Assembly (NCBI GenBank): GCA_024679065.1
Contig: JAGIQG010000023.1
Location: 10,540,001 to 10,604,000 of the forward strand
Reading direction: 5' to 3'
DNA: 64,000 nt
DNA from: Sphyrna mokarran
Taxonomy: Eukaryota
Below the pieces are notes generated by a model. That model had not been told where the DNA came from and made no database searches. It saw only the letters and a program-made list of their open reading frames with translations. Numbering within the stretch: the first letter of the stretch is position 1; the number at the start of each line of letters is the position of its first letter. This document shows positions 1 to 59,047 of this stretch, one piece after another. The position numbers and the translations under genes are program-made.

Positions 1-900
1 GATTATCTATATCTCTTTGCAAACTTTCAGCATCCGCTGCACACTTTGCTCTGCCACCCCACCTCAGTGTTACCTGCGAATTCTGACACACTACACTTGG
101 TCCCCAATTCCAAATTATCCATGTAAATCATAAACAATTGCGGCCCCAACACTGATCCCTGAACACACCACTAGTCACTGATACCAACCAGAAAAACACC
201 CATTTACCCCCACTCTTTGCTTTCTGTTAGTTAACCAATCTTCTATCCATGCTAGTACATTACCTGAAACACCGTGCACCTTTATCTTATGCAGCAGTCT
301 TTGGTGCAGCACCTTGTCAAATGCTTTCTGGAAATCCAGATATACCACATCCACAGGTTCCTTATTGTCCACTGCACATATAATGTTCTCAAAGAATTCC
401 ATCAAATTAGTCAAACATGTTCTTCCCTTCATGAACCCATGCTGTGTCTTACCAATGGGACAAATTTATATCCAGATGTCTTACTATTTCTCTTTTGATG
501 ATAAATTCAAGTATTTTCCCTACTACAGAAGTTAAACTAAACAATCCATAGCTACCCGCCTTTTATCTACGTCCTTTTTTAAACAGTGGCATCATATTTG
601 CTATTTTCCAATCTGTGGGAACCACCCCAGAATCCAGAGAATTTTGCTAAATTGCCACGAATGTACTTGTTACTTCTGCCGCCATCTCTTTCAGCACCCT
701 GAGATGCATTCCATCAGGACCAGGAGACTTGTCTAACTTTAGCCCTATTAACTTGCCCAACACTAACTCTTGCGTGATAATGAAAGGTTCTAGATTCTCT
801 GCTGCCATAGCCTTCCTGTCATCAATTTTTGGCATGTTATTTAAGTCTTCCACTCTAAAGACCAACACAAAATATCTGTTCAATGCCTCAGCCATTTTCT
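1..900 (-). mobile_element. Degenerate CR1 LINE ORF2 (RT) fragment, part of the block duplicated at 22285-23855
   Basis: ORFs 175..432 (GRTCLTNLMEFFE...VVYLDFQKAFDKV) and 647..895 (KSPGPDGMH) carry CR1 RT motifs; broken by stops and frameshifts. Confidence 0.9.
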
Positions 901-1289
901 CTTCTCATTTCCAGTCTTTACATTCCCCTTCTCATCCTCTAAACGTTCATGGTCATCATTGGATTATAATTACAGTTTTTTTTATTCAATTTAAATTCTG
1001 CCATTTGCTGTGGTGGGATTCGATCATGGGTCCCCGCCAGAATATTAGCTGAGTTACTGGATTAATAGTCTCATGATAATGCCATTGGCCATTGCATCCC
1101 CTAAACTGGAAGTAGCTGGCTGTATTAGTGAGGTTGCTGCCATTGCCAATGACATGTGGCCTCAGGAATACATTGGGTGACCCTCTTGTCACCTCCCACT
1201 ATCATTGCCCAAGTCTTCCTGCCTCCCAGTCCACCACATATACAAAGTACTTTCAATAATAAAATGTTCAACAAATTCCTCTCTTTTAG

Positions 1290-1413
1290 ATCAACCACAA
1301 AGTTCAACAATAAGCACAACAAGAAGTACCAACGCTTTTGTCAATACAATAGGAAAAACCAAAGATTCTGTTACCACATCCTTCATCATTTCAACCATCA
1401 ATGATTTTGACAT
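1290..1413 (+). CDS. Gene A (CD300/pIgR-like, activating type): Ser/Thr-rich stalk exon, phase 1-2
   Basis: ttcctctcttttag acceptor, at|gtaagt donor; encodes (D)QPQSSTISTTRSTNAFVNTIGKTKDSVTTSFIISTINDFD; paralog of 23577-23712, 12 nt shorter. Confidence 0.85.
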
Positions 1414-1577
1414 GTAAGTGCTGCAAAAACTGAATTCAACATATGTATACATACTCTCTGTGATGGTTCACAGAACATTGTTAAGGAGAAGTCCTACTCA
1501 ACTGGCTGCAAACTAGTGCCTCATGCTTCAATCAATGTTAGTTGTCAATATTGAGACTCGGTATATGTATACACACT

Positions 1578-5065: not shown

Positions 5066-5181
5066 AGAGGATGAGCTGAAGATTCTCGGTTTCTGGGCAA
5101 TATTCCGCTGGCTGCTCTTTGCTGCTCTGCCTGTTTGCACCGTGTCAGTCACATATTACATACGTTTTACAAGTGAACCAG
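5066..5181 (+). CDS. Gene A transmembrane exon with charged Arg
   Basis: ttcttgtttaatcag acceptor in phase 2 matching the stalk exon; encodes EDELKILGFWAIFRWLLFAALPVCTVSVTYYIRFTSEP; donor cag|gtataa at 5182, or read-through to stop at 5195. Confidence 0.75.
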
Positions 5182-6897: not shown

Positions 6898-8021
6898 CAA
6901 TGAACAGGAAGTTCAAAAGCACTAAAGAAGGAACTGCTCCAACAGTAAACCACAATCTAAAATTCATGCCTGCATTTAAATACAGACCTGAAATAGTGGA
7001 TAAGAGACAGCTCCAACACTACTCCTGGATCAGACATGGTTGCATTATACAGGCTGGCACTCAAGATGTGCCCCAATGCCATTAGCACCATATGGCGAAT
7101 AGAAAGCTCCAGGAGAGTTGAACACTTACGAGGGTTAGAGGTTATGAGAGAGAAATCCCGCCACTTGGACTAGAATATCCCCACCAACCATCTCACCTGC
7201 GCATTTTTGGCCAGCGAAGTACAATTGAAATTTCAATTTATTCATTTGCTACGGTTCAGTTGTTAAAATTCATTCCTTATTCAGTTCTCCAGGCCAACAA
7301 GTGATGGGTTACATCGAAACAGCAACCATAGTCCAAATGGATCCAAGCTTCATTCAAAGGCTGGTCAGAGGATTCATTAAACTTGAGCTGAACGTCCGGA
7401 ATATTTGCTTTGAGAAGTTACTTTTCGACATTATGGAATTTTATACTTTGGAATACCTTATAAAATTCCCAGAAATTGTGTGAAATACTTCATTTATTAT
7501 TAAAGAAGACAATAAGCACTATTAATATTGTTTATATTAAAGAGCAGTTTGTTTCTGTAATTGTCGCAAATGATTCACCAAAATAAGCAGCTCCATGAAG
7601 TGGCAGCATGGCACCACGTTGGCACAGTGGTTAGCACTGCTGCCTCACAGTGCCAGGGACCCGGGTTCGCTTGCTGGCTCAGTATTCTTCATTATTCCAT
7701 ATGGTGCTTAGTTCTATCCACTGAATAATTATTCAGGAAATCTGCCCAATACTGATGTTTGATTTGTAATTGCTGGGGATTATCTTTACGATCCTTTTTG
7801 AAGAAGCAAGTGACATTTGTAATTCTCCAGTCCTCTGGCACCTCCCCTCAGTCTAGAGGAGCTTGGAAGATTATATCCAATGTCCCTGCAATTTCCACTC
7901 TCACTTCTTTCAATATCCTTGGACATATCACACTCAGTCCCAGTGCTTTATCATTGAAATAATCTGGCCGAGGCCGGTATTCCATCTCTCTGTGTTTACA
8001 GTGGTAATTGAGTGCCACTGC

Positions 8022-8484
8022 AGCCATGCCATCTTTGCACTGCTGCCTTACAGCACCAGTAAAACGGGTTCCATTCCCGACTTGGGGCACTGTCCGTGTG
8101 GAGTCTGCATGTTTCCCCATGTCTGCGTGGGTTTCCTCCGGGTGCTCTGTTTCCTTCCTGCAGATCATCGCTAGATCTCCTCATGACCTCATTGAGTATG
8201 AGATCTCCGATTATGTGAGTAGAGGCTCACCCAATAGGGAAGGAGCAGTGGGGTGTAGAAAACCGACTGGATCCACTCTGATCATCAGTGAATAGACTCG
8301 GGACTGATCTGCATTCTGCAGCCATTGATTTTGGACTGTGGGAGAGTAACAGAGCACCCGGAGGAAACCCACGCAGACGTAGGGAAACATGCAGACTTCA
8401 CACAGACAATGACACAAGTTGGGAATGGAACCCATTTTACTGGCGCTGTGAGTAAAATGCCAGCGGTGTAAAGATGGCATGGCT
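8022..8484. repeat. Inverted pair of V-SINE fragments (8022-8163 + and 8336-8484 -)
   Basis: agccatgccatctttgcactgctg... is the reverse complement of ...cagcggtgtaaagatggcatggct; SINE bodies face each other. Confidence 0.8.
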
Positions 8485-8584
8485 AATGTACAATATCTGC
8501 ACAGAAAGAATTCACCCACCAGAAACACTCAATACAATGGAATTAATTGTTCTCTTGATTCTGATGTCTGTGATAATTCTCTAA
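8472..8584 (+). pseudogene. Orphan copy of the gene B 5' UTR/leader exon
   Basis: Aligns to 12027-12125; ATG at 8537 gives MELIVLLILMSV then IIL*; no gtaagt donor. Confidence 0.8.
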
Positions 8585-11512: not shown

Positions 11513-11949
11513 ACAATGTCTTCCTTGCCTTAAGAAAATCAAAATTTCTATCTCATCTTCTAAACAATCTTCACAGACTACAAGGGGTTTCTTCTGGGAG
11601 ATGAGGTGGTGGTGGACAGTGATTCAGGGGCAATTTTGATTAGACGGTTATTTTGTTGCTATGGAGAAAAACTTCCTTAGTTTCCGTTGTCAGGGTGATT
11701 GATGAAAATAGAAGTTTTGGTCAACGTGTGGGTAAAACTGTCAAAGTGTTAATGTGTAAGGAGTGTATAAAATTGGATTGCACAGGAACACTGGGATGGT
11801 CCAGTCCTACTGAATGGGCATGGACTTTCTCCTGGCCCTCCACATCCCCCGGGACAGGACCCTGCACAGCGGGACTGGAAAACAACACAGTGGAATTGAG
11901 GAGCCTGGATGCAGATTCTTCAGTTGACCCCCAACCACATCTGCATTGT

Positions 11950-12012
11950 AAAAGAGGAACTGGTTGATGTGACAGAAATATAAAGAAGGAAATGACATAC
12001 AGAACTGAGGAA
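11950..12012 (+). promoter_or_regulatory. Putative gene B promoter (PU.1/ETS boxes and TATA)
   Basis: aaaagaggaactg at 11950-11962, TATAAA at 11979-11984, GGAA at 11988 and GAGGAA at 12007, 80-140 bp upstream of the ATG. Confidence 0.55.
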
Positions 12013-12091
12013 ACTACTCGAGTGAGAGATAGCACGGCTGAAGTACAATATCTGGACAGAGAGAATTCACTCACCAGGAACACTCAGGGCA

Positions 12092-12131
12092 ATGGAGTTA
12101 ATCGCTCTCTTGATTCTAATGTCTGCATCAA
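12092..12131 (+). CDS. Gene B exon 1: signal peptide
   Basis: gcaATGg start, MELIALLILMSAS, a|gtaagt donor, phase 1. Confidence 0.85.
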
Positions 12132-12436
12132 GTAAGTCCATTAAATTTTTTTAATTGATTTTTAGTATTCATAAAAGGTATTTTTGACTATCTCAAATCC
12201 TGAAGACCAGAAGGAGCAACTCACTCAGGCACCAGTTGGTGTCAGCTAAAGTTGAAGCACTCACAGTTTTGCAGACTGTGGCTGTTATTGTGAAAGCCAT
12301 CCGCTGCTCCAGTATCTTCAGAAAATGGTGGTGTAGGGCTAACGTTTTGAGCTAGTAATCCGGCTAATGTTCTGGGAACTTGGGTTCAAATCCCACTGTC
12401 ACAGCTGGTAGGATTTAAAATTCAATTAAGTTATTT

Positions 12437-12755
12437 GGTGGCACAGTGGTTAGCACTGCAGCCTCAGAGGATTAGGGACCCGGGTTCAATTCTAACCTTG
12501 CATTGATGTCTGTGTGGGATGTGCACATTCTCCCCTTGTCTGCATGGGTTTCCTCCGGGCACTCCAGTTTCCTCCCACATTTCAGAGATGTGTGGGATAC
12601 ATTGATTGGCCATGCTAAATTGACACTAGTATCAAGGGGATTAGTAGGGTAAATATGTGGGTTTACAGGAATAGGGCCTTGGTGGGATCATGGTTGGTGC
12701 AGACTCAATGGGCTGAATGGCCTCCTTTTATGCTGTGGGGACTCTATGACATTCT
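12437..12755 (+). mobile_element. Full-length V-SINE (HE1-like)
   Basis: A box ggcacagtggttagc, B box gggttcaattc, V-domain, gggctgaatggcct tail. Confidence 0.9.
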
Positions 12756-13420
12756 GTGACAATCAGTCTTTGCCTCTTTCTGTGCTTTGCTTCTGCATTC
12801 TCACACTATCTGCCTCACCCTAGCTCTGTCCTCCCTGAAACACCAGCTCCTCATCGACAACAAGGAACAAACTGGGATTTTTTTCCAACTTGTTCCAAAC
12901 AAGTTCTGTTGTGTCGCACCTCGACCAGAAGGAAAACTCTCAAGGAGTTTCACATGGTGCAGGTTGCAGAGAGAAATAGAGAACCTGGAACACATTTGTG
13001 CCTCAAAAGGCACACTACAGCCTTCTGATCTCAATATCAAATTCAACAACTTCAGATGATTTGCTCGACCCCACCTCGATTCCTTTGTTTTCGTTCTATT
13101 TTATTGAATTTTTTACTTTTATTTCTTTATTGTCTTCCTTAATTTTTCACCCCTCCCCTACTCTTTCTCGCTACTTTATCCCTTTTCCCTTCCCCTTTCT
13201 CCCCCTTTGTTTCTCTTTTTCTAAATCTGACCTCTGCCCCATCCATTTTCCTCCTCCCCCAACAACTTCATTTTAGCTTCTCTGTCGTTTGGCCATTCAC
13301 AACTTTTAATCTCTCTGCGGACACTATTACTGCTTTCCCTGGTTTCTGTGGCTATGACCAATCTTTCATTCCCTCATACTGCAGTATAAATATCTCCCAC
13401 TTTCTATGCCTTTTAGCTTT
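12756..13420 (+). mobile_element. Degenerate Penelope-like 3' fragment
   Basis: GTLQPSDLNIKFNNFR resembles the GIY-YIG C-terminus also seen at 41100-41192; followed by a pyrimidine-rich UTR. Confidence 0.6.
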
Positions 13421-13515
13421 CTGTCTTAAAATGTGACTGCTTAGTTTCAAACCGTGACTCCCTACTTCTAGATTCTCTGATAGAGGAAACATCAAATGTA
13501 CATTCACCTTGTCAT

Positions 13516-13893
13516 AGAGTCAGAGAGGTTTGCAGCATGGAGACACGTCCTTCGGCCCAACTTGTCTTTTTTTTAAACTAAGCTGGTCCCGATTAACCAT
13601 GTTTGGCCCATATCCCTCTATATCCATATTATCCGTATAACAATCCAAATGTTTTTTGAAAGACAAAGTTGTACTCGCCTGTACCACTACCTCTGGCAGC
13701 TTCTTCCAGACACTCATCACCCTCTGTGTGAAAAGATTTGCCCCTCTGGACCCTTTTGTTATCTCTCCCTTCTCATCTTAAACCTATGCCCCCTAGTTTT
13801 CAAATCCCCTATCTTTGGGAAAAGCTATTGACTATCTAGCTGATCAGTTCCCCTCATTATTTTATAGATCTTTATAAGATCACCCTTAAGCCT
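13516..13893 (-). mobile_element. CR1 3' end
   Basis: ORF 13520..13720 VWKKLPEVVV...FKKHLD, and CR1 tail. Confidence 0.8.
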
Positions 13894-13929
13894 CACATTG
13901 TAAGGCTGGAAGAAACCTAACTTACCTTT

Positions 13930-14535
13930 TAATTGAAACAATAATTTTTAGTTAATTGCTCAACGCAAACAAAAACTAAGCCACAGAGATTAACTCTTTA
14001 GTGACCCATGTGAGCACCAAGATCGTATTTTACAAGGAGTGGTTAGCAAGATAGAGAAAACCTAATGAGACTGAAATTATCCTGAGAGCCATAGGTGCAG
14101 AACAAAGGCTGGACATTGGTTTCCCACGCGGAGCAAGCCCACATCAGCTAGATGTGTGCAGAGCCGCAGTTTTATACTGAGCAGGTTAGTCCCTCCCCTT
14201 TAATTATCCTTGGGCTCAGAAACAGGCAGACTGAGAAAAACTCATGAGAAAGAATGAAAGGATTCATTTTTTCTTCTCAAGTTTCTTTCCACATTTTCCA
14301 TTGTGACAAAGTCCGGAAGTAAGGAATGTTCTGATTTGGTGGAATCTGGTCCCACAAAAAGCAGATAATCCCACAAAAGCAGATAATCAGAGGGTTGCCT
14401 GTTGGGGAAATTGGGTACAAAAACTGTGCCCACAATTTTTGCCCATCGGGCTCGCCGGGCCAAGGTGTAATTCACCTTCTCAGCCTCAGTCAACGTAATT
14501 TCACATTGGTTGGTCAATTAAGAGTCAGCCAGTGT
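13930..14535 (-). mobile_element. LTR-like repeat, copy A
   Basis: Reverse complement of 15222-15345 plus 16648-17105; has CCAAT, TATAAAA and AATTAA motifs in LTR order. Confidence 0.6.
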
Positions 14536-15221
14536 GAAACACACACATGTAAAGGCACAGCCCTGACAGCGAGGGCGGGAAGAAGGCAGGAGCTGATAAC
14601 AGGGAAGGTGTGGGCTGATGTTTGCAATGCGTTCCCTCAGGGGAATGGTTGGTCTAGAGTTGTTTCAGGGAACTGGCGACCTGTGAAATATAAATATCAA
14701 TGGAAAGAGTGTCGGGCAGAACATTCAAACACAATGTGCATATTAAAATCACCCATGATTACTGCGTACCATGCTTGCAAGCCCCCAGATTTCCTGGTTT
14801 ATACTGTGCTCCACTGAGGAACTACTGCTTGGGGCCTATAGATTACACCTACCTTTACTTCTTCCCTTTACTATTTCACATCTTGATCTCCGGTGCTTGT
14901 GTAATTTCTCATACTGCATTGATCCCTTTCTTCACCAGAAAAGCTTCTCTACCTCCTTTTCCTTTCAATCTATCTTTCCAAAGTGTTGAGTACCCTTGGA
15001 TATTCAATTCCCACACCTGGTCTCCTTGTAACCATGTCTCAGTAATTGCCACCAAACCATATCTTTCTGCTTTTATTTCCAATATTAACTATTAATTTTA
15101 TTCCAAGTGCTTTGTGTGTTCATATGCAAAGCTTTTAAATTTGTTCTATTGGTAAATTTCCCTATTCTTTTATAATTCCTTGGTACATAAAGACTTACAC
15201 CCATTCCGTCTCTCAGTTTTA

Positions 15222-17105
15222 TTGGCTGACTCTTAATTGGCGAACCAATGTGAAATTCTGTTCACTGCGTCTGAGAACGTGACTTTCGACCTCCAGGCCC
15301 GGCAAGCCCGATGGGCAGAAAATTGAGGGCACAGTTTTTGTGTCTGGATGCCTGTGAATCAGACTGCAATTACAAACAGGTGGGCGGATTGGCTGATGCC
15401 AAAATAAAGGCGATTTGATAGCCGATCCCAGTAGCTGTGCGGGTCTTCTGGTTTCTACCACACAGTGAGTCAATCCCTTCCGCGGGAGCCACCTGGTATC
15501 GTCTCCTTGGGCACAAGAGAGGGTATTCTGTGACTGGCCGAGAAACAAATAGCGGGGGCGATGCATGCTAGGTGCACCACCACTACCACCGGACTGCCAG
15601 CCAGGAGCGGTATCGCTGGAATGGACTGTGGTGTGTGTTTCGTAGCTGTGGTATTCTTGGCGTTCTAGACCACAGTGAGTCACTCCTTACCAATGGTCCC
15701 GCAGGGAATTCAGGCCTTCAAGCTGGCAGGCGATGGCCCTGAAGGGAATTTGACTGGCCGAGAACAGCCAACATGCTTCTATACCTATAAACCTATACCT
15801 ATAAACAGCCAACATGCTTCTATACCTATATAATCGGTGAAAAAAAGTTTTGTCTCGACAGGTTCCGGCTTGTCCCGGGGATAGTTGGTGATCCGCTGGC
15901 GGATGCGGTCACACCTATCTAGGTAGTAGAAAGCACCCGCGACCTCCTACCCACACAATTCGGTACAGAGGGTAAGACGAACGAACCAAACCTGGTGTGA
16001 CACGGAGAAAGGACGTAGTGCCCCGTCTTGTCTCTGATGATCACTACCAGACGTTGACGAAAGATAATAACGGCACCGATTTCCACCCAAGGTGTCGCGG
16101 TACGTATGGGCAGCACGTCAGCCCAGTGATTAGCACTGCTGGCTGGCCAGCTATAAGGACCCAGGATCGACTCCCGACCTTGGCCCGTGGCTGGGGGAGT
16201 TTGCACATTCTCCCCGTGTTTGCGTGGGTTTTCCCCGGGTACTCCGGTTTCCTCCCACATCCCCAAAAACGTGCTAACTAGGTTAATTGGCTAAGACAAA
16301 ATTGTCACGTCACCTAATCTGGCTCCCCTTGATTCAGCCTAAATATATCCCCCAAATTCTAAATTCCGTCCCTTGTGCAAGAGAGTCGAGCACCGACCAC
16401 ACAGTACCGACAAAAGGCTCACTAAAATGCCCATAAACATCAGGGATGACCGTAAACAGAGCTAGCTATAAAATCTTAGCTTAGATCCCAGCTCACACCC
16501 CAGCTAATAACATCTTAGCAGGGAATCCAACCGAGCCACAAATTAAGATCAAGTAGACCCTGGTCAGGGTTCTGCTAGTGGTAGACCAAACCGTTGACGA
16601 GCGACGTAAAGACTCGGAAAAGGCACTCACTCGAGTGTATTAAAATAGCCCTCTGATTATCTGCAGTGAGCTTTTTGTGGGGCCAGATTCTGTCAAATCA
16701 GAACATTTCTTATTTACAGACGTTGTTGCTATGGAAATTATGAAAAGTAACTTGAGAAGAAAGAATGAATCCCTTCATTCTTTCTTACGGGTTTTTCTCA
16801 GTCTGCCCATTTCTAAACTATGGACAATTACAGGGGAGGGAGTGGCCTGTTCAGTATAAAACTGTGGCTCTGCACACATATAGCCAATGTGGGCTTGCTC
16901 ACCGTGAGGAACTAATGTCCAACCTCTGTTCTGCACTTATGGCTCTCAGGATAATTTCAGTTTCATAGGTTTTCTATGTCCTAGTAACAACTCCTTGTAA
17001 AATATGATCCTGGTGCTCACACAGGTCGCTAAAGAATTAATCTCTCTCTGTGGTTTAGTTTTTGTTTGCGTTTAGCAATTAAAACTAAAATTTATTGTAT
17101 AATTT
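15222..17105 (+). mobile_element. LTR-like repeat, copy B, with an extra 1.3 kb CpG-rich segment (15345-16648) containing a V-SINE (16107-16305)
   Basis: Inverted homology to 13930-14535; TATAAAA near 16855. Confidence 0.6.
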
Positions 17106-17109
17106 ACAG

Positions 17110-18170
17110 TAACGATCCGTCACATCACTAACCTGCATTCTTACCTCCTCCTTTAATCTGGGTTTTCTGATTTCCTTGACAAGTGAACCCTCCCCCTACC
17201 ATTCAGTTTAAAACCCGATTTACAGTCCTTGTTATGCAGTTCACTCAGACTCTGGTGCCTGCATGATTCAATCCAATCAGAACAGGTCCTTTCTTCCCTA
17301 GTACTGGTGCCAATATCCCATTAACTCTTCTCCCCACACCAATCTTTAAGCTTTGCATTTACCTGCTAATTGGAAACTGTGCCAATTAGCTTGTGGCTCA
17401 CGTAGTAATCCAGAGATTAGTATCTTTTAGGTTTTGCTTTTTAATTTCGCTCCGAGCTGTTCACACTCCCTTACCAGAACTGCTACCCTTGTTTTGTCTA
17501 CCGCATTTGTACCCTCATGGACTACCACAACTGGACCTTTACCGTGCCACTCCAAGTTCCTCTGCAGCTCAGATGAGATATTCCGAACCCAAGCACCAAG
17601 TAGGCAACACAACCTTTGGTACTCTCGATCCTGGTCACAGAGGACAGTGTCAATGTCTCTTAATATACTATCCCCAATTACAACTCCATTTCTTTTCTCT
17701 CCCCCACCTGGATGGCTCCCTGCACCAAAGTGTTGCGCTCTGTTGTCCCCGTTCCCATCCACTGCAGGGAGCAAGAATCTGGAACATGTTGGATAAGGAC
17801 AAGGGCTGAGGCTCCTGCAACCCGACTGCTTGGATCCCTCTACGTTCCTCATTCACTGCCACACTCTTCTATCCCTGACTGATAGCTGAAATCAAGTTAG
17901 TTTGTCTAAAGGGTATGACTGCCTCCAGATAACAAAGAACAAAGAGCAACACAGCACAGGAAACAGGCCCCCTCGGCCGAATGAGCCCGTGCCGCCATTT
18001 TAATCTTCCCCATGCCTGATGTGTTGCAGAATCCGAAGCTCAGAATCCAGCTCATCAACGCTGATTTGGAGCTGCTCGAGCAACAAATATTTACTACAGA
18101 TGTGGTCACTGGGAACCACCAGCTCCCACACCATGCAGGAACAACACATCACCTGATCCTCCACCCGTTT
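17110..18170 (-). mobile_element. CR1 ORF1 (SGNH esterase-like) fragment
   Basis: ORF 17427..17852 VVIGDSILR...CCLLGAWVRNIS...VVVHEGTNAV. Confidence 0.8.
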
Positions 18171-18890
18171 TTTATTTCATTAGTTTTGAATTTGTGTTTT
18201 TTTTTATTTTTTAACTGATTTCATATCTCTGCTTATTATCTCAATCTGAATACAACTTATCACCAGTAATTTAACACAGATACAGATTTAGCAGATTCCA
18301 GATTAGCTAATCAAATCACAGCCTTACTCTGAAGTTACTTTTCAGTTCCCACCAGCTGAAACACTCAGAATGAGAATCCCTTACCGTCTCAGGTTCAACT
18401 CTATCCCGTTCTGTCCACTTCTGAAGTCAGGTCCATTAGTTACCTGGGCTGTGACGACACAGTTTGATTTCTTTTTACCTCTCACTTGCCATCGAGTCTC
18501 CCTCGCAGGTCCATATCTTGGATCCTCCCAAAGACAAGCACCTCATTCCCCTCTGTGCCAAATCCCCAATCAGCTCCAAATTCCCAATACCCTCACTCTG
18601 GCTGAAATCTCACTCAGGCTGCAGTCTCTCTCCCACTGCTGTGCACAGGCTCAGTGGTCGAGTGCACATCCACAGCGAGCAACATTATATTCTGGCCTGT
18701 GTTTGCGCAGTGTTTTGAAGGTGCATTGGTGAAATGAAGCAGCACCACGAATCTGATCTTAACAATATAATTTGATCCATCATTGCAAAGAAGATTGTTA
18801 TAACAATGAAACGGGAGTATTTACTAGGTTATTGTTTTTGTTGATTCTGATCAAACAATTAATAAACTTTCCTCATTAATATCCCAATAG

Positions 18891-19220
18891 GTTCATGTCA
18901 ATTAACTGGACCCAAGGAGATTCATGGACAATTAGGAGGATCAGTCACTGTGAACTGTCAGTATGATCTGAAATACAAAGACAATGTTAAAGACTGGTGC
19001 AGAGGTGATTATTCCTTGCTGTTTAAATGTTCTGTTGTAGTTTCTACTAAAAATCCGAAAAAAGGAAGAATATCACTGACTGATAACAAAACAGAAGGAA
19101 TATTTTCAATAACGATGGATAACATAATGCAGAGTGATGAAGGACAATACCTGTGTGTGATAGAAACATCAACATTTGAATATAATGAAAAGTTTTCTAT
19201 TAATTTGAAAGTTTCTCAAG
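18891..19220 (+). CDS. Gene B exon 2: V-set Ig domain of CD300/pIgR/TREM type
   Basis: cccaatag acceptor, caag|gtaaga donor, phase 1-1; LTGPKEIHGQLGGSVTVNCQY...KDWCRG...C...GRISLTDNKTEGIFSITM...DEGQYLC...LKVS. Confidence 0.95.
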
Positions 19221-19692
19221 GTAAGATGCTGTTTCTGTTTAATTTATTCTGCCTAAATTTAAACATTTTGAAATCAGAAATCCCACCTGTCCAATCAGCG
19301 GGCCAGCTTAACCTTGGCAGTGTCACAATTCCCATGGTCACTGCTGAGGCTACAGGAGGAAGGTGAAGTGACTCCACGCTGAGGCGCCATCAAAGAAAAG
19401 GTTTTTTTTAACCTGGTGAGGAGGCCTCAGTAATCCAGGGAATGCTCACTCCATCAGGAACACTCTCGCATGGAAGGGATCATTACTGATTGGTGGATAT
19501 CTCCATGGGCCATAGAGGAGGCATCTCCTTCCAGTGAAACAATTTCCAGATAAACCCAGGGTTTATCCGGAAATCTCAACATGTGTTAGCAGCTGCTTCC
19601 AATGTCAAAAAATTGCTGATTGCAGCAGTGGACAATTAATTGGTTTAATTGCAGAGAGGCTGTGGCACAGTTGGAATCTTACTGGAGCAGGC

Positions 19693-20660
19693 AAACAAGG
19701 GGTTTCCGACCTGACTATCTGCTCCTATACTACGGTTATATTTGCGGCTGGTTGTCCCTAGAGAGGGAGTATGCAGTGTCCACAGACTCAAGGCCTTTTG
19801 TATCATTGAGCACCACAGGGACTGGGGTGCCTGGTTGATTCCTTTAATCATATTTTAGTTTAATGTTTTAAGTTTAATTTGTGTTTTGTTTTTGTTGAAG
19901 TCAGCATCCCTCTAAGGTGTTGACCTCTTTACTTTCTCCCTCAGTTCGTTTGATTTGGTTTAATTGGTTTATACAAGAGAGTTGCAATCTCACTGGAGGT
20001 TCCCAGTAGAGGCCCCTCTATGAAGCAGTCCTCCCTTAACATTGGGGACCTGAGGTGGAGGGTGCCGCATGTTGCAGACCCACACAACCTGAGGTTGCAT
20101 CGGTTCATAGACTCCCAAGATGCTTGTCCTTTGTGTGACCCTGAGGACTCTGCTTATAAAGGTTGTTTTAGACTGCATTTCCTTTTAGCTATTTAAAAAA
20201 ATCTTCTGTTACAGTTTCGTTTGCATTTCAGCCCCACAGTCCTGATCTGCAGGAACCTGGGGCAGGGAAGGAGGACCTCCTCATGAACCTGCTCCTCGGC
20301 CTGGCCAAACTTGTCCACAACAGGTCCAGGTGGCAAGTGACAAAGGGGGTCATCCGACCTGATTACCTGTTGCTTTACTGCGGCTACATTCACGGCCAGG
20401 TGTCTCTGGGGAGGGAAGATGCAGTGATCAGGGGCACCACCAAATCCTTCCGTGCCCCTTGTGTACCATGGGGGCTGGAGTGCCTCATTGACCCCTTTAA
20501 TTATATTTTAGTTTGATGTTTTAAGTTGCATTTGTGTTTTGTTTTCACTTAAGGCAGTACAGTGACACAATGGTTAGCAGTTTAACCTTTTAAGGTACTG
20601 ACACATTTACTTTGTCCTTCAGTTCATTTAAATCAGTTAAATTGATTTATACAAAAGAGT
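19693..20660 (+). mobile_element. Two tandem Tx1/L1-type 3' end fragments
   Basis: NLLLGLAKL..NRSR (20283..20516) and DLRWRV motifs; 19693-19978 duplicates about 20340-20660. Confidence 0.65.
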
Positions 20661-21689
20661 TAGAATCTGACTGGTCTGGCAATCCAGTGACCCAGAATAT
20701 TGCCCTGGAGATCTGGGTTCAGATCAAACCACAGCACCTGATACAATTTAAATTCAATTAATAAATCTGGATTATTAAATGGTGACCATGACAACTCTCA
20801 TCAAATATTGCAAAACCCCATTTGGTTCATGAAATCAGACAATGTGGAAGAGGCCCTTTGGTCCATCAAATCTGCACTGACATGTCAAAAACATTTGACT
20901 TTCCACTTAATCCCATCTGCCTGCTCTTGGCCTTTAGTCCTGAATGTTGTGATGTGCAAAATCCAAGATGTGAGGCAACCCACTTCTACCAGCCTCCCAG
21001 GCAGCATATTCCAGACAATCGCTACCCTCTGGTGGCTTTATCTCACATCCCACCTAAACCTCCTGTCCCTCACCTTGAATCTGAGCTCCTCATGAGTGAC
21101 CCTTCAACTGAGGGGAACACCTTCTCCTTATCCATTCTCTCCACGTCCCTCATAATCTTGTACACCCCAATGAGGTCACCCTCTCAGTCTTCTCTTCTCC
21201 AATGAAAACACCCAAGTCTATCCAACCTCTCATCATAACGTAGATAATTCCATCCCAGGCAGCATCCTGGTGAATTTCTGGTTCACTGCCACCCTTACAT
21301 CTTACTCCAAAACCATAGTAATGTCATTGACTCCTAACTCCTCTCTGAAATGGCCCAGCAAACCATTCAGTTCAAGGGAAATTAGGAATGGACAACAGAA
21401 AACTGATCTTGCCCCTAATACTCACACACCAAAAAAGAATTTTAAAAACTTGCCACCTATTTTTTTGTTCATTTGTTGTCCATGGACGTCACTAGCTGGC
21501 CAGCATTGATTGCCCATCCTTAGTTGCACAAGGGCATTTGAGAGTCAATCACATTGCTGTGGCTCTGATTTTGGTGAAGGGTCTTCTGCCTCCAAAGACT
21601 TATTACAGGCCAGATCAGGTAAAAACAGCAGATTTCCTCAGGACATTAGTGAAATAGACTGGTTCTTCCAATAATTGGTAATGGTTTCA

Positions 21690-23180
21690 TAAGAACTAGG
21701 AGCAGGAGTAGGTCATCTGGCCCCTCAAGTTTGCCCTGCCATTCAGTAAGACCACGGCTGATTTTTTTGTGGACTCAGATCCACTTATCCGCTCGCTCAC
21801 TATACCCTTAATTCCTTTACGTTTCAAAAATTTATCTATTTTGCTTTAAATGCATTCAGTGTTTCACTGGGCAGGGAATTCCATGGATTCACACTTTGCT
21901 ATGCCACCCATCTTAGTGTTATCTGCAAATTTTGACACACTACACTTGGTCCCCAATTCCAAATCATCTATGTAAATTGTAAACAATTGCAGTCCCAACA
22001 CTGAAGACATTCTTCCTCAACTCAGTCCTAAATCTGCTTCCCCTTATTTTGAGGCTATGCCCCCTAATCTAATTTCACCCATCAGTGGAAACAAATTCCC
22101 TGCAGTTCCCTTCATAATTTTATATTTTATATATTTCTATAAGATTTCCTCTCATTCTTCTGAATGCCAATGAGTATAGCCCCAGTCCATTCAGTCTTTC
22201 CTCTGCTGTTATTCCTACCAAAATAGATGACCTCACATTTACCAACATTGTACTCCATCTGCCAGACCCACGCCCACTCACTTAGATTATCTATATCCCT
22301 TTGCAGACTTTCAGCATCCTCTGCACACTTCGCTCTGCCACTCAGTGTCAACTGCGAATTCTCACGCACTACACTTGAAGCCCAACTCCAAATTATCCAT
22401 GTAAATTGTAAACAATTGCGGCTCCTATACTGATCCCTGAGGCACATGATTAGTCACTGATCGCCAACCAGAAAAACACCCATTTACCCCCACTCTTTGT
22501 TTTCTGTTAGTTAACCAATCTTCTATCCATGCTAATACATTACCTGTAACACCGTGCACCTTTATCTTAAGCAGCTGCCTTTGGTGCGGCACCTTGCCAA
22601 ATGCTTTCTGGAAATCCAGATATACCACATCCACAGGTTCCTTATTGTCCACTGCACATGTAATGTTCTCAAAGAATTCCATCAAATTAGTCAAACATGA
22701 TCTTCCCTTCATGAACCCATGCTGTGTCTTACCAATGGGACAATTTATATCCAGATGTCTTACTATTTCTTCTTTGATGATAGATTCAAGCATTTTCTCT
22801 GCTACAGAAGTTAAGCTAACTGATCCATAGTTACCCATCTTTTGTCTACCTCTTTTTTTAAACAGTGGCATTACATTTGCTGTTTTCCGATCTGTGGGAA
22901 CCATTCCAGAGTCCAGCGAATTTTGCTAAATTGCCACTAGTGCACTTGCTATTTCTCCCACCATCTCTTTCAGTACTCTGGGATGCATTCCATCAGGACC
23001 AGGAGACTTGTCTAACTTTAGCCCTATTAACTTGCCCAACACTAACTCTTGCGTGATAATGAAAGATTCTAGGTCCTTACCTGCCATAGCCTTCCAGTCA
23101 TCAATTTTTGGCATGTTATTTGTGTCTTTCACTGTGAAGACTGACACAAAATATCTGTTCAATGCCTCAGCCATTTTCTC
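21690..23180 (-). mobile_element. Degenerate CR1 ORF2
   Basis: ORFs 22127..22447, 22425..22904 (QHGFMKGRSCLTNL...LDFQKAF) and 22926..23174. Confidence 0.9.
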
Positions 23181-23855
23181 TTCTCATTTCCAGTCATTAC
23201 ATCCCCGTTTTATCCTCTAAACGTTCATGGTCATCATTAGATTATAATTCCAGGTTTTTTTTATTCAATTCAAATTCTGCCATCTGCCGTGGTGGGATTC
23301 GATCATGGGTTCCCAGATTATTAGCTGAGTTACTGGATTAGTGGATAGTGGATAGTTACTGGATAGTGTCATGATAATACCATTGACCATCGCTTCCCCT
23401 AAAGTGGCTTATTGCTGAGGTTGCTGCCATTGCCAATGACATGTAGCATCAGGAATACATTGGGTGACCCTCTTGTCACCTCCCACTACCACTGCCCAAG
23501 TCTCCCTGCCTCCCAGTCCACCACATACACAAAGTACTTTCAATAATAAAACGTTCAACAAATTCCTCTCTTTTAGACCAACCACAAAGTTCAACAATAA
23601 GCCCGACAACCAGTGCAGCAAGAAGTACCAACGCTTCTGTCAACACAATAGGAAAAACCAAGGCTTCTGTTACCACATCTCTCATCACTTCACCTACCAA
23701 TGACTTTGACTAGTAAGTGCTGCAAAAACTGAATTCAATATATGTATACACACTATCTGTAGTGGTCCACAGAACATTGTTAAGGAGAACTCCTACTTAA
23801 CTGGCTGAAAAGTAGTGCTTCATGCTTCAATCAATGTCAGTTGTCATTATTGAGA
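22285..23855 (+). repeat. Segmental duplication, copy 2 (partner 1-1556)
   Basis: Direct alignment by eye to the window start. Confidence 0.95.
23577..23712 (+). CDS. Gene B exon 3: Ser/Thr-rich (mucin-like) stalk
   Basis: ctcttttag acceptor, ta|gtaagt donor, phase 1-2; (D)QPQSSTISPTTSAARSTNASVNTIGKTKASVTTSLITSPTNDFD. Confidence 0.85.
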
Positions 23856-25691: not shown

Positions 25692-25798
25692 TGACACGGG
25701 CTGGCATGTGATTCTATCGACAGTTATGGGGCTAATTATCCTACTGTTCATCACTGCTCTTATTCTTTATGTGAAACTAAAGCAGCAGAAGAAAAGCG
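25692..25798 (+). CDS. Gene B exon 4: uncharged transmembrane segment
   Basis: attttgtag acceptor phase 2, g|gtaagt donor phase 1; (Y)DTGWHVILSTVMGLIILLFITALILYVKLKQQKKS. Confidence 0.9.
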
Positions 25799-26915: not shown

Positions 26916-26947
26916 GCATTGGTGAGGAGAATCCTGGAGTCTGTCAG
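26916..26947 (+). CDS. Gene B exon 5: short cytoplasmic exon
   Basis: ttttattttacag acceptor, cag|gtgaga donor, phase 1-0; (G)IGEENPGVCQ. Confidence 0.8.
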
Positions 26948-30707: not shown

Positions 30708-30860
30708 GAAAATCAAGAGCTGATGTATTCCAGTGTGACCGTGGTACCCAAACCTGACATGGAAAATACTTACCTTAATCTTCAGGATCTTACAGCTCAA
30801 AGAAGAGCCAGAAACCAAGAGTCTTCAGAAACTGTGGAATATTCTGCAATTCTTGTCTGA
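30708..30860 (+). CDS. Gene B exon 6: ITIM-bearing tail (completes a 265-aa CD300-like inhibitory receptor)
   Basis: tttcctaag acceptor phase 0; ENQELMYSSV...NTYLNL...TVEYSAILV*; six exons total 798 nt with no internal stop. Confidence 0.9.
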   Translation, partial: ENQELMYSSVTVVPKPDMENTYLNLQDLTAQRRARNQESSETVEYSAILV

Positions 30861-47930: not shown

Positions 47931-48984
47931 ATATGGGGCTCTGCTCAACAGAGTCTCTCTCCTGGGCCTTGTGGCCAGCTCTCTTCCCCAGGCCCTCCTC
48001 ACCCTTGTCCCCAGGCCCAGTTTGGGGATGCTGGATTGGGTTCTGTGCACTCGAAGAGTAACACCCCACTGGTGGAAGGGCAGATTGAGAGGCAGTTGTG
48101 CAATTCTTGGGATTTTAAATATGAATACTAATTATAAAAATGAGGAGTTACATTAAACCTTTACTGCTCACTTGTTAGGTCTTTGCTGGAGTATTGGGTA
48201 CTTCAATATGGGGATATAGAAAGGGGCAGCACGGTGTCACAATGATTAGCACTGCTGCCTCACAGCACCAGGGAATTGGGTTCGATTTCTGGCTTGAGTT
48301 ACTGTCTGTGTAACGTCTGCACATTCTCCCTGTATCTGCGTGGGGTTCCACAGGGTGCTCCGGTTTCCTCCCACAGACTGAAACTCTTGCTGGTTAAATG
48401 CATTCTTCCTCAGTGTGCCCAAACAGGTGCCACTGTGTGTCGATGAGAAGATTTTCACACAAACTTCATTGCACTGTTGCATTACATTGTAATGTAAGCC
48501 TATTTGTGACTAAAAATAAACTTTACAATTTTGGTCACCACACCCAAGAAACGAGGCAAAGGCACAGGGTGGATTTACTGGAAAGGTGCCAGGGATGAGG
48601 GAATTTGATTATGTGAACAGATTGGAGAAACTGGATTATTGTTCTTGGGACAGAGAACATCAAAGAGAAATCTAATCAATGTATTGAAAATGAAGAAAGG
48701 ATTTAAAACGTAGTTGGATATGTGTTTGGAGGGGACTAATGTGCACGCTTATGGGGGAAGCTGGGCTGTGGGATTCAATTGGACAATAATTTTTCAATGA
48801 GCTGGCACAGACATGACAGGCCGAATGTCCTCCATCTCTGCTTTAAGATTCTTGATTCCAGTCCCACCCAGAACTTGTGTGTGTCCCCTTGTGAAGCACT
48901 AGCTAGCATTGCACCAAAAGGATTGTCTACAATTGGGTGTTGGGATATTTCCAGCTTTCTTAAAACGTTATGTTTCACCAACAG

Positions 48985-49311
48985 TTTTATGGACACAAAC
49001 TGCCTCGATAGAGATGAAAGCTGCAGTGGGACAAACCATCACTGTGGAATGTCCAGGGGTAACACGGTACAAACACCGAGAAATCTGGTGGTGTAAGAAA
49101 ACTTCAAATAATTCTTGCAATCATGTATCAAGCATTTCTAGAGATGGTATCAGGAATGCTGACGCAAGAACCTTGATTGCGAATACCAATGGTAAAATTT
49201 CTGTAACCATAAAACAACTTCAGGAGACAGATACAGGAACATACTGGTGTGGAATTCAACATGAAAACTCTATCCGTATTTTCGATGTTGTAACACTGAA
49301 GGTTTTCACAG
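48985..49311 (+). CDS. Gene C V-set Ig exon 1 (CD300/pIgR type, intact)
   Basis: caccaacag acceptor, cag|gtaaga donor, 327 nt, phase 1-1; GQTITVEC...WWCKKTSNNSC (Cx7C)...LQETDTGTYWCGI. Confidence 0.9.
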
Positions 49312-50563
49312 GTAAGAATATTTCAGAAGATTGATTTTATCTTTGATAATGTGATCTGGCTGCAATAACACAGGGCTGCTGCTGTGTGAACTCAGATTAA
49401 TAAAATATCACAACTCCTCATGTACAAGTAGTGACCTCCCATTTCTATCCATTTCCATTAACCTATTTCCACATCCTTTCTGTTTATATTCTTCCAAATC
49501 AAAAATCATATTCCACCCAAGGCTCCTTTATTGATTCTTTCATGCAATGTGAGTTTCTGGAACAGTATTTATTGCACATCCCCAATGATCCTTAAATGCC
49601 TTCTTGAATCACTGCAGCTCATGAAGTGTACGTACATCCACAGTGCTGTTAGGGAGGGAGTTCCAGGATTGAACCAGTGACAACGAAGGAACAGAGATAG
49701 ATTCCCCAGGCTGGATGGTGTGTGTTTTGGAGGGAAGATTGTCAGTGGTGGTGTTCCCATGTTCCCGCTTCTCTCCTCCTTCTAGGTGTTAGATGTTATA
49801 TGTTTGGAAGGAGATGCTTTGTGTCTTCATAGTAACTTCTAATAGATCGAAGATGACTTAATGTGGTTTGAATCAATAAATGTTTTATTGCCAACAATAT
49901 TGCATGCTTGCCTTCATCGGACTGGGCATCGAGTATAAAAGTTGGCAAATTAAGTTACAATTGTTTAAAACATTGGTGAGGTCACATTTTGAATACTGTG
50001 TCCAATTCTGCTTAGCACAACATTAGAAGGATGTAGAGGCTTTGGAGAGAGTGCAGAAGAAATTGCTGGTATGGGGGTATTCACTATGAGGAGAGATTGA
50101 ATGAACTGGAATTGTTCTCGCTGGAAAGATGGAGGCTGAGACAAACTGGTAGAAATTTATAAAATTATGACAGGTATAGATAGGGTGAACATTTGGAAGC
50201 CTTTTCCCAGGGCAGAAAGGACAATTACAAGTGAGAACGAGTTCAAGTTAAAGGGGAAAAGGTTCAGTGGAGATGTGCGGGGGAAGTCTTTTCACACCAG
50301 GGATGATGGGGGCCTGGAATGCACTGCCAAGTGAGTGATTGAGGCAATTACTTTAGTCGAATATAAGACGTATATCGATAGGCATAGAAACAAACAGGGA
50401 ATAGAGGGAGATAAGCAATTGGTTTATTTAGGTAAACATGCACAAGCTTGGAGAGCCGAAGGGCCTGTTCATGTGCTTACTGTTCTTTGTAATAAGAATA
50501 TATATATCTATACAACAAAGTCAGAACGAATTACAATGTGAATCTACTACTACTCGACTCCCA

Positions 50564-50602
<39 letters not shown>

Positions 50603-51545
50603 CAGTCTTCCTCTTCTGCCCTCCATCCTGATCTTGGGCTTTGCTCAGCAAAGTCTCTCTCCTGGGCCTTGTGCCCAATTCTTCTCCCCAGGCCCTCGTC
50701 ACGCTTGTCCTCTGGCCAGTTTGGAAGTGCTGGAGTTGGATTCCAAGCACTCTGATAGCAATACTTCACTGGTGGAAGGGCAGGTTGGGAGATAGTTGTG
50801 GGATTCTTGGGATTTTAAATGGGAATATTAGTTATAAAAATGAGGAGTAACACTACACCTTTACTGCTCACTGGATAGCTCTCTGCTCGAGTATTGGATT
50901 TAATTCTGGGCACCATATCAAGGAAGGAGGTTAATGCCCTGGCAAGCGCACAGAGCAGATTCACCAGGATAGTGCCAGGGATGAGGGAGTTTGGCTATGT
51001 GAACAGATTGGAGAAACTGGGATTATTGTCCTTGAAACAGAAAAGATTAAAGGGAAATCTAATCAATATATTGAAAATGAGGAAGAGAGAGAAATATGAA
51101 GAGAGAAATTATTTCCTCTCACTGGTGGATTGGTAACCAGAGATCATAGATTTCAAATAGTTGGAATACAAACCAGTGGATAAATGAGGGGAAATTATTT
51201 CATGCAGAAGATTGTTATGAAGCGGAATTCACCATTTGCAATGGTGATGGAATGAGATTAAAAAGGAACTTTCAAAAGGACATGTGTTTGGAGGGGACTA
51301 ATGTGCAAGGTTGTGGGGGAGGCTGGGCCATGGGATTCAATTGGACAATAAATTTCCAATGAGCTAGCAGAGACATGACAGGCCGAATGTTCTCCATCTC
51401 TGCTTTAAGATTCTTGATTCCAGTCCCACCCAGAACTTGTGTGTGTCCCCTTGTGAAGCACTGGCAGCATTGCACCAAAAGGATTGTCTACAATTGGGTG
51501 TTGGGATAATTCCTGCTTTCTTAAAACGTTATGTTTCACCAACAG

Positions 51546-51872
51546 TTTTACGGAGACTAACTGCCTCAACAGTGATGAAAGCTGCAGTGGGAGAAACCAT
51601 CACTGTGGAATGTCCACAAACAACACGGCACAAACAACGAGAAATCTCGGGGTGTAAGAAAACTTCACAAACTTATTGTAATCATATACCGAGCAGGTAT
51701 AGATACAGAGTTAAGAATGTTGATGCAAGAACATCGATCGCTAATACCAACAGTAAAATTTCCATAACCATAAAACAACTTCAGGAGACAGATACAGGAA
51801 CATACCGGTGTGGAGTTCTACATGTAAACTCTCTCCATGTTTTAGATGTTATAACACTGAAGGTTTTCTCAG
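51546..51872 (+). CDS. Gene C V-set Ig exon 2 (open but lacks conserved Trp residues)
   Basis: Same splice sites and length; ISGCKK replaces IWWCKK and YRCG replaces YWCG. Confidence 0.75.
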
Positions 51873-52359
51873 GTAAGAATATTTCAGAAGATTGATTATA
51901 ACTCTGATAATGTGATCTGGCTGTAATAACACAAACAGCTGCTGTGTGCTGTGTGAACGCAGATTAATAAAATATCACAACTCCTCTTGTACAAGTATTT
52001 CCATTTCTATCCATTTTCATTAACCTGCTTCTGCATCCTTTTCATACATACTTTTACAAATCAAAAATCATATTCTTCCCAAGGCTCCTTTACTGATTAT
52101 TTCATGCGACGTGGGTGTCTGGAACAGCATTTATTGTACATTTCTAATTATCCTTGAACTGCCTTCTTGAATCACTGTAGCTCATGAAGTGTCACAGTGC
52201 TGTTAGGGAGGGAGTTCCAGGATTGAGCCAGTGTCATATTCCCCAGTCTGGATGGTGTGTGTTTTGGAGGGAAGTTTGTCAGTGGTGTTCCCATGCATTT
52301 GCTTCTCTTCTTCTAGATGTTAGATATTGCAGGTTTGGAAGGAGATTTAATTGCTCGCT

Positions 52360-54290
52360 TTCTATCTCCATAGTAACTTGGAATAAATCAAGGGTGACTC
52401 AATATGGTTTGAATCAATAAAGGTTTTATTGCCAACAATATGACATTCTTTCCTTCATCAGACTGAGCATTGAGTATAAAAGTTGGCAAATTATGTTACA
52501 GTTGTTTAAAACATCGGTTAGACCACATTTTGAAGACTGTGTCCAATTCTGGTTACCACACCATCAGAAGGATGTGGACGCTTTGGAGAGAGTGCAGAAG
52601 ATGTTTACCAGGATGTTACCTGGTATGGAGAGTATTAGCTATGAGAGATTGAATAAACTGGGATTGTTCTCTTTGGAAAGACAGAGGCTGAGGGATAACC
52701 TGGTAGAAGTGTATAAAGTTATGACAGGTATAGATAGGGGAACTTTTGGAAGCTTTTTCCCAGGGCAGAAAGGACAATTGCAAGTGAGCACAAGTTCAAA
52801 TGAAGGAGAGAAAGGTTCAGTGGAGATGTGTGGGGGAGGTTTTTACACAGAGGGTGGTGGAGATCTGGAATGCACTGCCAGTGAGGTGATTGAGGCACAT
52901 TTAAGAATTATATCGATAAGCTTAGGAACAAACGAGAAATGGAGGGATATAAGCAGTTTGTCTACATAAGTAAAGATGATCGGTGAAGGCAATAAGGTCA
53001 GAATGAATTACAATGCAAATCTACTAATTGGCTCCCTGGCTCCAACTGCAAAATGTTCCTCAACATTCTCTTGCTGATTGGCTCAGTTCCAGGCTTGAGA
53101 ATCCACAGGGCCTGACACAATCACATGACCTCGTATACAGTCTCCCATCCCAATTAAAGGGCCTTCCCTCTAAAATCTGAAATACAGCAATGGAGGAATA
53201 AAGAACAGGAAAACTCATCAAAGATTTAATCAGTCTGGAGGAATCCGGTCTCTGGTAGAGTTCCTCAATTCAGTGGTTTGCTCTCCTAAGTTTAAAGGGC
53301 TAGACGGGACAGAAAGGCAGATTCATTAATCCAGGATCTGGTGGATCTTTAGCAGCTTCTGGTTCCTCAGCCTCCACAGCCAGCGGTTGCTGCACTCCCA
53401 CATTCTCCAGCAAAATCCCAGTAACCAACTCCGGCAAAGTTTAACCAACTACAGGGAGCGCCTGTTGATCCTCTGTGTCCATCACTCTCTCCCCCTTCGA
53501 TAGTCTACCTACTTCCTGAGCCGACAGCCTTGTATCTCCACAACTTTACCACCCATTCAGGACAGGCCTGGTGTAAAATTTGGAAACAAGACTGCATCCC
53601 CGATTAAAACACTGTTTCCTTTTCTCCTTCTGAAAGACTAGCCTAGCCTGCACACTCTCTGCAAAATTTTGGAAAATCATGTCCAGTTGTGTTTTTAACT
53701 GGCATTGCATCAGCAACTCTGCTAGAGTCACCCCTGTGGTCACATTTGGGGTGCTGTTACAAAACAACAAAAAACTGTCCATACATAAAGGAAGAGGATA
53801 GTTTACTTGTTTTTTTATCAATGACTTGAATGCTTGTACCGCACACTTCACTGGTCCATTTGAAGCTGGATGGGAATGTGTTGACCTCACATGGTGAATG
53901 CTATTGGGCTTGAGGAATTTTTGGAATTCTTCCATAGTGAATGATGTGCCATTGTCTGACACAACCACTTCCGGAATGCCCTGGATAGCAGAGAATTTCC
54001 TCAATCTATCAATGGTGTCCATGGCTGTTGGGGAATTCATTAACTGCACATCCAACAACAACTAATATAAGAAACATATGACCCAGAAATGGCCCGGGCA
54101 AAATCTACATGTAACTTCCACCAAGATTGACGCCATTCCCAATGACGCAAATTCACCTGTGATGGTAAAGCCCGGTGATCTTCGTAACTCGGGCATTGAC
54201 GAACCATCGGTTCTGTTTCCGTGTCAATGCCTGGTGAAAACACATATGCCTGGGGCCCTCATTCTACTTTGACCAGGATGAGAGTGGTGT
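52360..54290 (-). mobile_element. Gypsy-type LTR retrotransposon remnant: integrase, PPT and 3' LTR (interrupted by a CR1 piece)
   Basis: ORFs 54040..54243 (WWKLHVDFA) and 53546..54061 (GIPEVVVSDNGTSF...HPASNG); purine tract ttttagagggaagg on - at about 53162-53175. Confidence 0.8.
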
Positions 54291-54540
54291 AGTCCTTCTA
54301 ACAGGAATTAAAGTTAAAGTCACAAGTAGGCTTACATTCACACTGCAATGGAGTTACTGTGAAAATTCCCTAGTTGCCACAATGAGGCGCATGTTTGGGT
54401 ACACAGAGAGAATTTAGCGTGGGCAATTCACCTAACCAGCACATCTTTGGAGTGTAAAGGAAATTGGAGCACCTGGAGGAAACCCATACAGACATGGGAA
54501 GAACATGCAGCTTTCTTAAAACGTTATGTTTCACCAACTG

Positions 54541-54867
54541 TTTTACGGACACAAACTGCCTCGATAGTGATGAAAGCTGCAGTGGGAGAAACCATCACTG
54601 TGGAATGTCCACAGACAACACAGCACAAACAACGAGAAATCTGGTGGTGTAAGGAAACTTCAGATAATAATTGCAATCTGATATCGCGCACTCATGGAGA
54701 TAGCATCAGAAATGATGATGGAAGAACATCGATTGTTAATACCGATGGCAAAATTTCTGTAAATATATTACAACTTAAGGAAACCGATACAGGAACATAC
54801 TGGTGTGAACCTCCATATCAAAACACATCACAGATTTCAGATGTTATATTACTGAAGGTTTTCTCAG
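54541..54867 (+). CDS. Gene C V-set Ig exon 3 (open, canonical acceptor mutated)
   Basis: caccaactg instead of caccaacag; WWCKETSDNNC, DTGTYWC; donor cag|gtaaga intact; in-frame AG at 54509-54510. Confidence 0.7.
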
Positions 54868-55203
54868 GTAAGAATCTTTCAGAAGATTGATTTTAGCTCT
54901 GATAATGTGATCTGGCTGCAATAACACAGGGCAGCTGCTGTGTGAACTCAAATTAATAAAATATCACAACTCCTCATGTGCAAATACTGACCTCCCATAT
55001 TCCCATTTCTATCCATTTCCATTAACCTATTTCTGCATCCTTTCCTTCTTTATTATCTTCCCTTTATACTCTTACAAAGCAAAAATCATATTTATCTAAA
55101 ACCTCTTTTATTCTTTCTTTCATGGGATGTGCCTAAAACACCTTTTATTGCCTATCTGTAATTACCCTTCAGAAGGTTGTGGTGAGCTGCCTTCTTCAAC
55201 TGC

Positions 55204-58977: not shown

Positions 58978-59047
58978 GATGTAAAGATGCCGGTATTCAA
59001 AGAAACAGGTCTACAATTCTTTAAGACACATAAGCACCTGAGTAATA

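Follow-up and report, generated by a model that had tools for sequence, protein, structure and literature searches.

Two neighbouring immune-receptor genes of Sphyrna mokarran, here called gene A and gene B, share an ectodomain and carry unrelated transmembrane (TM) segments and tails. The window analysed is a stretch of 64,000 nt of contig JAGIQG010000023.1, in which contig position equals window position plus 10,540,000; local contig DNA was also taken in, without the stretch 10,130,001–10,140,000. A sequence-only reading of the window had proposed that an ectodomain cassette was copied onto a different TM/tail module, or that it is kept homogenised by conversion. The second half of that proposal has stood and a one-off recent copy onto a new tail has not. 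Judged from the sequences, and held with good confidence, A and B would be tandem receptors with unrelated tails, likely an activating/inhibitory pair, whose ectodomains have been re-matched repeatedly, probably mostly by gene conversion.

Extent and limits of the shared block

The match first seen between positions 1–1556 and 22285–23855 was recovered by self-BLAST at 87.9 % identity over 1593 columns, with 133 mismatches in the 1534 ungapped columns (8.7 %). Similarity stops 143 bp past the stalk-exon donors at 1413 (gene A) and 23712 (gene B), close to the 140 bp first estimated. Of the block as originally delimited, the 3′ edge holds and the left edge does not, position 1 being the mere edge of the window. 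With upstream DNA added, the homology extends to window position −6240 versus 11538, in five pieces of 77–93 % identity, and its 5′ limit lies approximately 550 bp ahead of both start codons. Positions 1–1556 are just the 3′ end of a longer stretch shared by A and B from promoter through stalk. On the gene A side (1..1556, plus strand, block start at −6240) this end comprises intron 2 with a LINE relic, the stalk exon and 143 bp of intron 3, and on the gene B side the block (11538..23855, plus strand) runs from the promoter to 143 bp past the stalk exon, with gene-specific insertions between.

The decayed retroelement common to both genes, also seen in the first reading, is a LINE endonuclease-reverse transcriptase (RT) fragment on the minus strand at 1..901 (tblastn E 1e-86), with the gene B copy at about 22208–23180. 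The A and B copies are 90 % alike, versus 68–71 % for the next-best copies in 864 kb. Residual intronic homology past 1556/23855 after repeat masking had been named as the sign that would speak against a break at this point. None was found, the score of 13 being equalled in 97 of 200 shuffles; non-repeat sequence makes up 420 of the 3509 bases of gene A's remaining intron (88 % repeat), and a repeat begins at 1577, just past the 3′ limit of the gene A block, so this test has little power and the true A/B break could lie further 3′.

Gene structures and predicted signalling

Both genes are on the plus strand. The gene A model is intact, with GT-AG introns, and comprises signal, Ig, stalk, TM and last exons. 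Its signal exon (−5689..−5650) and Ig exon (−2660..−2331) lie upstream of the window, followed by a Ser/Thr-rich stalk exon (1290..1413, phase 1 to phase 2), a TM exon (5066..5181, phase-2 start) with an arginine near the outer end of the helix, putatively of activating type, and a last exon (7285..7483) with alternative acceptors at 7285 and 7293. Acceptor 7293 joins the TM exon to the last exon to give 266 aa without an ITIM. Acceptor 7285 permits in-frame skipping of the TM exon to give 230 aa without a hydrophobic segment, a form predicted to be soluble, and the TM-skipped form is also present in the database models P0004 and P0024 (Mustelus and Heterodontus). The last exon (7293–7483) is open for ~63 codons here and in Mustelus and meets a stop after a few codons in catshark models. 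Additionally, a 170-bp match of 70 % joins the last intron of gene A to DNA upstream of gene A; a relic of an older A was considered.

Gene B is likewise intact as a model of 265 aa with GT-AG introns, and matches Mustelus P0003. Its exons encode the signal (12092..12131), a V-set Ig domain of CD300/pIgR type with an extra cysteine pair (18891..19220), the stalk (23577..23712, ending in phase 2), an uncharged TM helix (25692..25798, phase-2 start), a short cytoplasmic segment (26916..26947) and a last segment (30708..30860) with the tyrosine motifs LMYSSV, NTYLNL and VEYSAI. All three tyrosine positions are conserved in 10 of the 10 B-type tails examined. In run X24, which is RNA only by guess, a contig over 18970–19220 ends at the Ig-exon donor, and the stalk exon has some depth, with none at the listed neighbouring intron sites; of the about 1300 splice joints in that run, the 15 shown include no Ig-stalk joint, and no run is on record as RNA, so that the signal is too slight to count as expression. 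The TM exons of the two genes proved to be non-homologous and both phase-2 compatible, as first read, with TM peptides 6 % identical and GT-AG sites. The linked pair thus combines similar ectodomains with opposite motifs, an Arg-type TM without ITIM in gene A and a neutral TM with ITIMs in gene B. Between the genes, at 8470..8570 (plus strand), lies an orphan copy of the signal exon, without splice donor and 84–85 % identical to both genes, perhaps the relic of a third copy.

Family identity and cluster context

The Ig domain is of the V-set (Pfam E 2.6e-17) and is a single domain with a second cysteine pair. Its best single-domain PDB match is CD300f (E 5e-17), the closest solved structures are CD300f and pIgR, and the closest named relative is from Mustelus asterias (79 %). 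Identity to skate MDIR2, a distant paralog that carries a second Ig-like domain, is 35 %. By these matches the pair most plausibly belongs with the MDIR/CMRF35-like receptors, MDIR having reportedly been first described by Cannon et al. in 2006. In the 864 kb around the pair, some 60 matches to related Ig exons form a cluster (62 rows, one listed twice), with both TM types.

The human CD300 locus adjoins TTYH2/NHERF1. No Tweety or EBP50_C (NHERF) match was found on the A/B contig, such matches being located on contigs C749, C783 and C1104, and orthology to mammalian CD300 was rejected on this synteny. IL10-family and SARG matches occur on the A/B contig about 6 Mb from the pair; in the human gene order these belong to the PIGR neighbourhood. 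Contig 16.27–16.99 Mb brings together an IL10-family match, SARG and, at 16.42 Mb, a V-set exon, and is thereby a candidate for the PIGR/FCAMR-like position in this shark.

Several further features of the cluster were apparent. A second set of genes, with multiple Ig domains, extends from window 48975–54869 on to +145,600 (contig 10.589–10.686 Mb); two of them have identical Arg-type TM exons (66,672 and 96,550), and one has a neutral TM and a tyrosine-motif tail (138,426 and 145,441). A 30–35 kb tandem duplication at 98–99 % spans this set; either a recent unequal crossover or a duplication made in assembly may lie behind it. Another tandem duplication, of 16–20 kb at 96–98 %, lies at contig 10.32–10.37 Mb and includes an Arg-type TM exon. 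On the minus strand at contig about 10.05–10.08 Mb and 10.16–10.20 Mb (L075–L077 and L046–L049) are two arrays of tandem Ig exons, with 9 and about 13 members at ~2.5 kb spacing, suggesting very long multi-Ig receptors. Two retroelement ORFs were also noted on the minus strand, an endonuclease-RT LINE ORF of 841 aa (window 60074–62596) and a Penelope-like RT ORF of 904 aa with a weak GIY-YIG match (window 56299–59010).

Layered identity between A and B

Over 5951 aligned A/B columns, identity falls into layers, with a background divergence of ~10 % that drops to 1.2 % near the Ig exon. That exon lies at the centre of a 973-bp tract, at 18570..19542 (plus strand) in gene B and −2981..−2009 in gene A, with 12 mismatches and no indel, versus 497 mismatches in the other 4978 columns, as would fit a young conversion tract. 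The tract limits were placed by eye, but every position was open to the permutation test, in which none of 20,000 rounds came down to 12 mismatches, the minimum being 43; the longest identical A/B run is 292 versus a permutation maximum of 179. Automatic segmentation recovered the same tract (11 mismatches in 920) together with two 170-bp patches. One of these patches, at 320..490 (plus strand) with 2 mismatches in 170, lies in the 1–1556 block and is possibly a short conversion tract. The 1–1556 block itself is the older layer, about 9 % diverged, and the recent tract is on the Ig exon, its gene A copy being upstream of the window. Several stalk-exon residues are common to A and B and different in both Mustelus genes, so the 1–1556 block has likely been homogenised too, earlier.

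Purifying selection on an old duplicate could be invoked for the Ig match, as the best-matched region holds the ligand-binding exon. It is, however, contradicted by the intronic flanks, which are matched equally well (7 mismatches in 643 intronic columns of the tract); moreover, four of the five A/B differences in the Ig exon change an amino acid, and the domain is 22–47 % different from that of other species. This explanation is scarcely credible.

An assembly artefact, whether haplotype duplication or consensus bleed between A and B, was weighed against short-read run X1, which may be from the source individual. It assembles A and B as separate contigs on both flanks (depth 8.9/10.6 and 17.6/16), and its A-like contig departs from the shared sequence at 23855. 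Over 18577–19679 there is a single contig at depth 27.2, about the summed depth of A and B. That collapsed contig mixes A and B letters and the run is possibly from the same individual, both of which leave some room for an artefact; the copies are nevertheless ~10 % different with distinct insertions. The haplotype artefact that the first reading had allowed for was not borne out, and an artefact of either kind is highly improbable.

Comparison with two other organisms bears on the age of the tract. Over the Ig region 68 of 539 and 42 of 432 bases differ from gene B, with 8–9 % in the 3′ flank, in contigs that may be their A or B gene; thus the tract is likely younger than those splits. At the few listed sites that bear on the direction of conversion, derived letters occur in both A and B. 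All four protein differences of the window pair are changes on the gene A side. That the activating copy changes faster as a protein was considered and rejected, the count over five pairs being 23 versus 13 (3 unresolved; p = 0.13).

The pair in other sharks and rays

Three protein searches found both receptor types in six further species, as automated protein models of which several are fused or garbled (P0001, P0002, P0007, P0008 and P0026); the Mustelus A model is without TM. Seven species of sharks and rays thus show both types; in six of these, all but S. torazame, the Ig domains are 85–98 % identical within the species, versus 53–78 % between the window Ig and other species. Within-species A/B values are 98.1 % in Carcharodon, 96.2 % in the window, 95.1 % in Heterodontus, 88.6 % in Mustelus, 84.5 % for A2/B in S. 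canicula and 63.1 % in S. torazame. In Hemitrygon, 239 of 247 residues are identical over two Igs and the stalk, with divergence exactly at the expected start of the TM exon. In the window, Mustelus, Carcharodon, Heterodontus and Hemitrygon the stalks agree as far as the junction with the TM, and catshark stalks are unmatched. Given the 63 % of S. torazame and the 58 % of S. canicula A1 to B, homogenisation is not universal. Pristiophorus, Cetorhinus, Hemiscyllium and Chiloscyllium gave one receptor type each.

Trees of the two halves of the protein group in opposite ways, Ig domains by species and TM segments by type. Their rows are close matches, P0029 (a TM-less Chiloscyllium model) and distant paralogs being left out. 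In the Ig tree, sequences cluster by species or family; an A-type Ig clade is rejected (AU test, p-AU 5e-41, 8 versus 8 rows, in groups set by tail type after the Ig tree had been seen). Each of five pairs has 2–8 residues private to its species, and A cannot be told from B by any single column. In the TM tree the A and B types form separate groups (98/93; 96/89); at about 40 columns this tree is short, and it places a paralog from the window's cluster among the A-type TMs, so one-to-one orthology of A is not proven. The within-species Ig match together with TM grouping by type likely reflects an old pair homogenised repeatedly, rather than a recent graft, and the sequences suggest that the pair has likely been kept matched since before the shark/ray split.

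A single recent partial duplication, placing the ectodomain on a different tail in this lineage only, would fit the sharp 3′ boundary, the common LINE relic and the compatible phases. Such a graft does not survive the comparison: other sharks and a stingray have counterparts of both tail modules, ectodomains match within species (S. torazame excepted), and genes of both types, with ectodomains that match, are present in lamniform, heterodontiform and batoid species, with the A-then-B order retained in the fused models of Carcharodon and S. torazame. Layered identity is also not obtainable from one event. Unless the database models are chimeric the single graft is contradicted, and it must be considered very improbable.

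Serial module swapping is a stronger competitor, if still an unlikely one. Unequal crossover within the shared block would give a new gene with the 5′ end of B and the 3′ end of A, the old A would be lost, and the process would be repeated per lineage. S. canicula has two A genes with near-identical stalk, TM and tail, of which A2 has a B-like signal peptide and Ig and A1 does not, so that A2 resembles the 5′ end of B on the 3′ end of A1. The tandem duplication in the next gene set, which doubles an Arg-type TM, and the orphan signal exon between A and B also fit. Against this, it takes conversion or double crossovers to give a young 1-kb tract flanked by older sequence on either side, together with the two 170-bp patches, and upstream of A there is no copy of the A–B intergenic DNA, repeats aside. 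Such an internal tract of 1 kb speaks for conversion; in the long old layer, conversion and unequal crossover are indistinguishable. Unequal crossover probably contributes alongside conversion.

Proposed mechanism

Under repeated homogenisation, ectopic recombination between copies ~21.5 kb apart would copy tracts from one gene to the other. Intron 3, where homology ends past the stalk exon, would set the limit of exchange and so place the TM and tail beyond the reach of the tracts. Selection would likely retain tracts that cover the ligand-binding domain. ITIM-phosphatase and TM arginine-adaptor coupling are known from mammalian receptors; accordingly modelled, the gene B ITIMs would recruit SHP-type phosphatases, and the gene A arginine would pair with an ITAM adaptor, most likely FcR-gamma, which is assumed here by analogy with LILRA, PIR-A and GPVI. 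A literature search returned no support for an adaptor assignment of gene A. Gene A may also be secreted via TM-exon skipping. The two receptors could track one ligand, and where pathogens engage gene B, a matched copy, activating or soluble, would act against them.

Relation to known receptor pairs

Primate CD300A/CD300C are inhibitory/activating partners whose ectodomains cluster by species via gene conversion (PMC12447643). Likeness to A/B extends to the single CD300-type V domain, the opposing partners and the species-wise clustering of ectodomains. The TM residue of CD300C is a glutamate, whereas that of shark gene A is an arginine; the time depth is that of primates, whereas the A/B pair is found in sharks and rays; and the shark cluster lies off the Tweety/NHERF contigs. 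‘Merohomogenization’ of the KLRC/NKG2, KLRI, KLRB and PIR pairs, in which signalling parts are older than speciation and ligand-binding parts are homogenised within species, is described in PMC3210942. Those pairs resemble A/B in patchy tracts that reach into flanking introns, but belong to other receptor families, in rodents and primates. SIGLEC11/SIGLEC16 likewise are similar over a long 5′ stretch that starts ahead of the gene and takes in the ectodomain, with a smaller, repeatedly converted tract on the V-set exon (PMC5701461). Their common ligand preference was shown by experiment, whereas for the shark pair a common ligand is a prediction. The modular domain immune-type receptors (MDIR) of skate and zebrafish form a multigene family, CD300/TREM/pIgR-like and with both activating and inhibitory members, that is likewise present in cartilaginous fish; CD300/pIgR-like V domains are common to it and A/B (PMC3031540).

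Homogenised opposing pairs are thus already known (primate CD300A/C, Siglec-11/16 and NKG2), the receptor family is known from skate, and the mechanism is established. A literature search, with most subscription papers and supplements outside its scope, found no paper on the A/B pair or on conversion in shark CD300/MDIR-like genes. With the present pair, cartilaginous fish join the groups in which opposing receptors evolve in concert, probably from the common ancestor of sharks and rays onward (a split put at about 300 Mya in PMC12318234); the likely age and the common boundary are what it adds. A stricter form of the argument, that conversion has maintained a ligand match in one opposing pair ever since the ancestor of sharks and rays (~300 million years), the limit of exchange staying fixed at the stalk/TM intron, is evenly poised. 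If true, the pair would be far older than the mammalian pairs compared and would imply a lasting, pathogen-exploited ligand, with an activating gene that also gives a secreted decoy by TM skipping.

Among the ~60 Ig exons of the cluster, those of A/B are the most promising start for a search for ligands. A natural comparison is offered by the catsharks, in which some activating copies are matched and others are not. As a separate observation, the cysteine of the extra disulfide is replaced by arginine in the A-type Ig of Heterodontus and of S. canicula A2 (P0014 and P0012).
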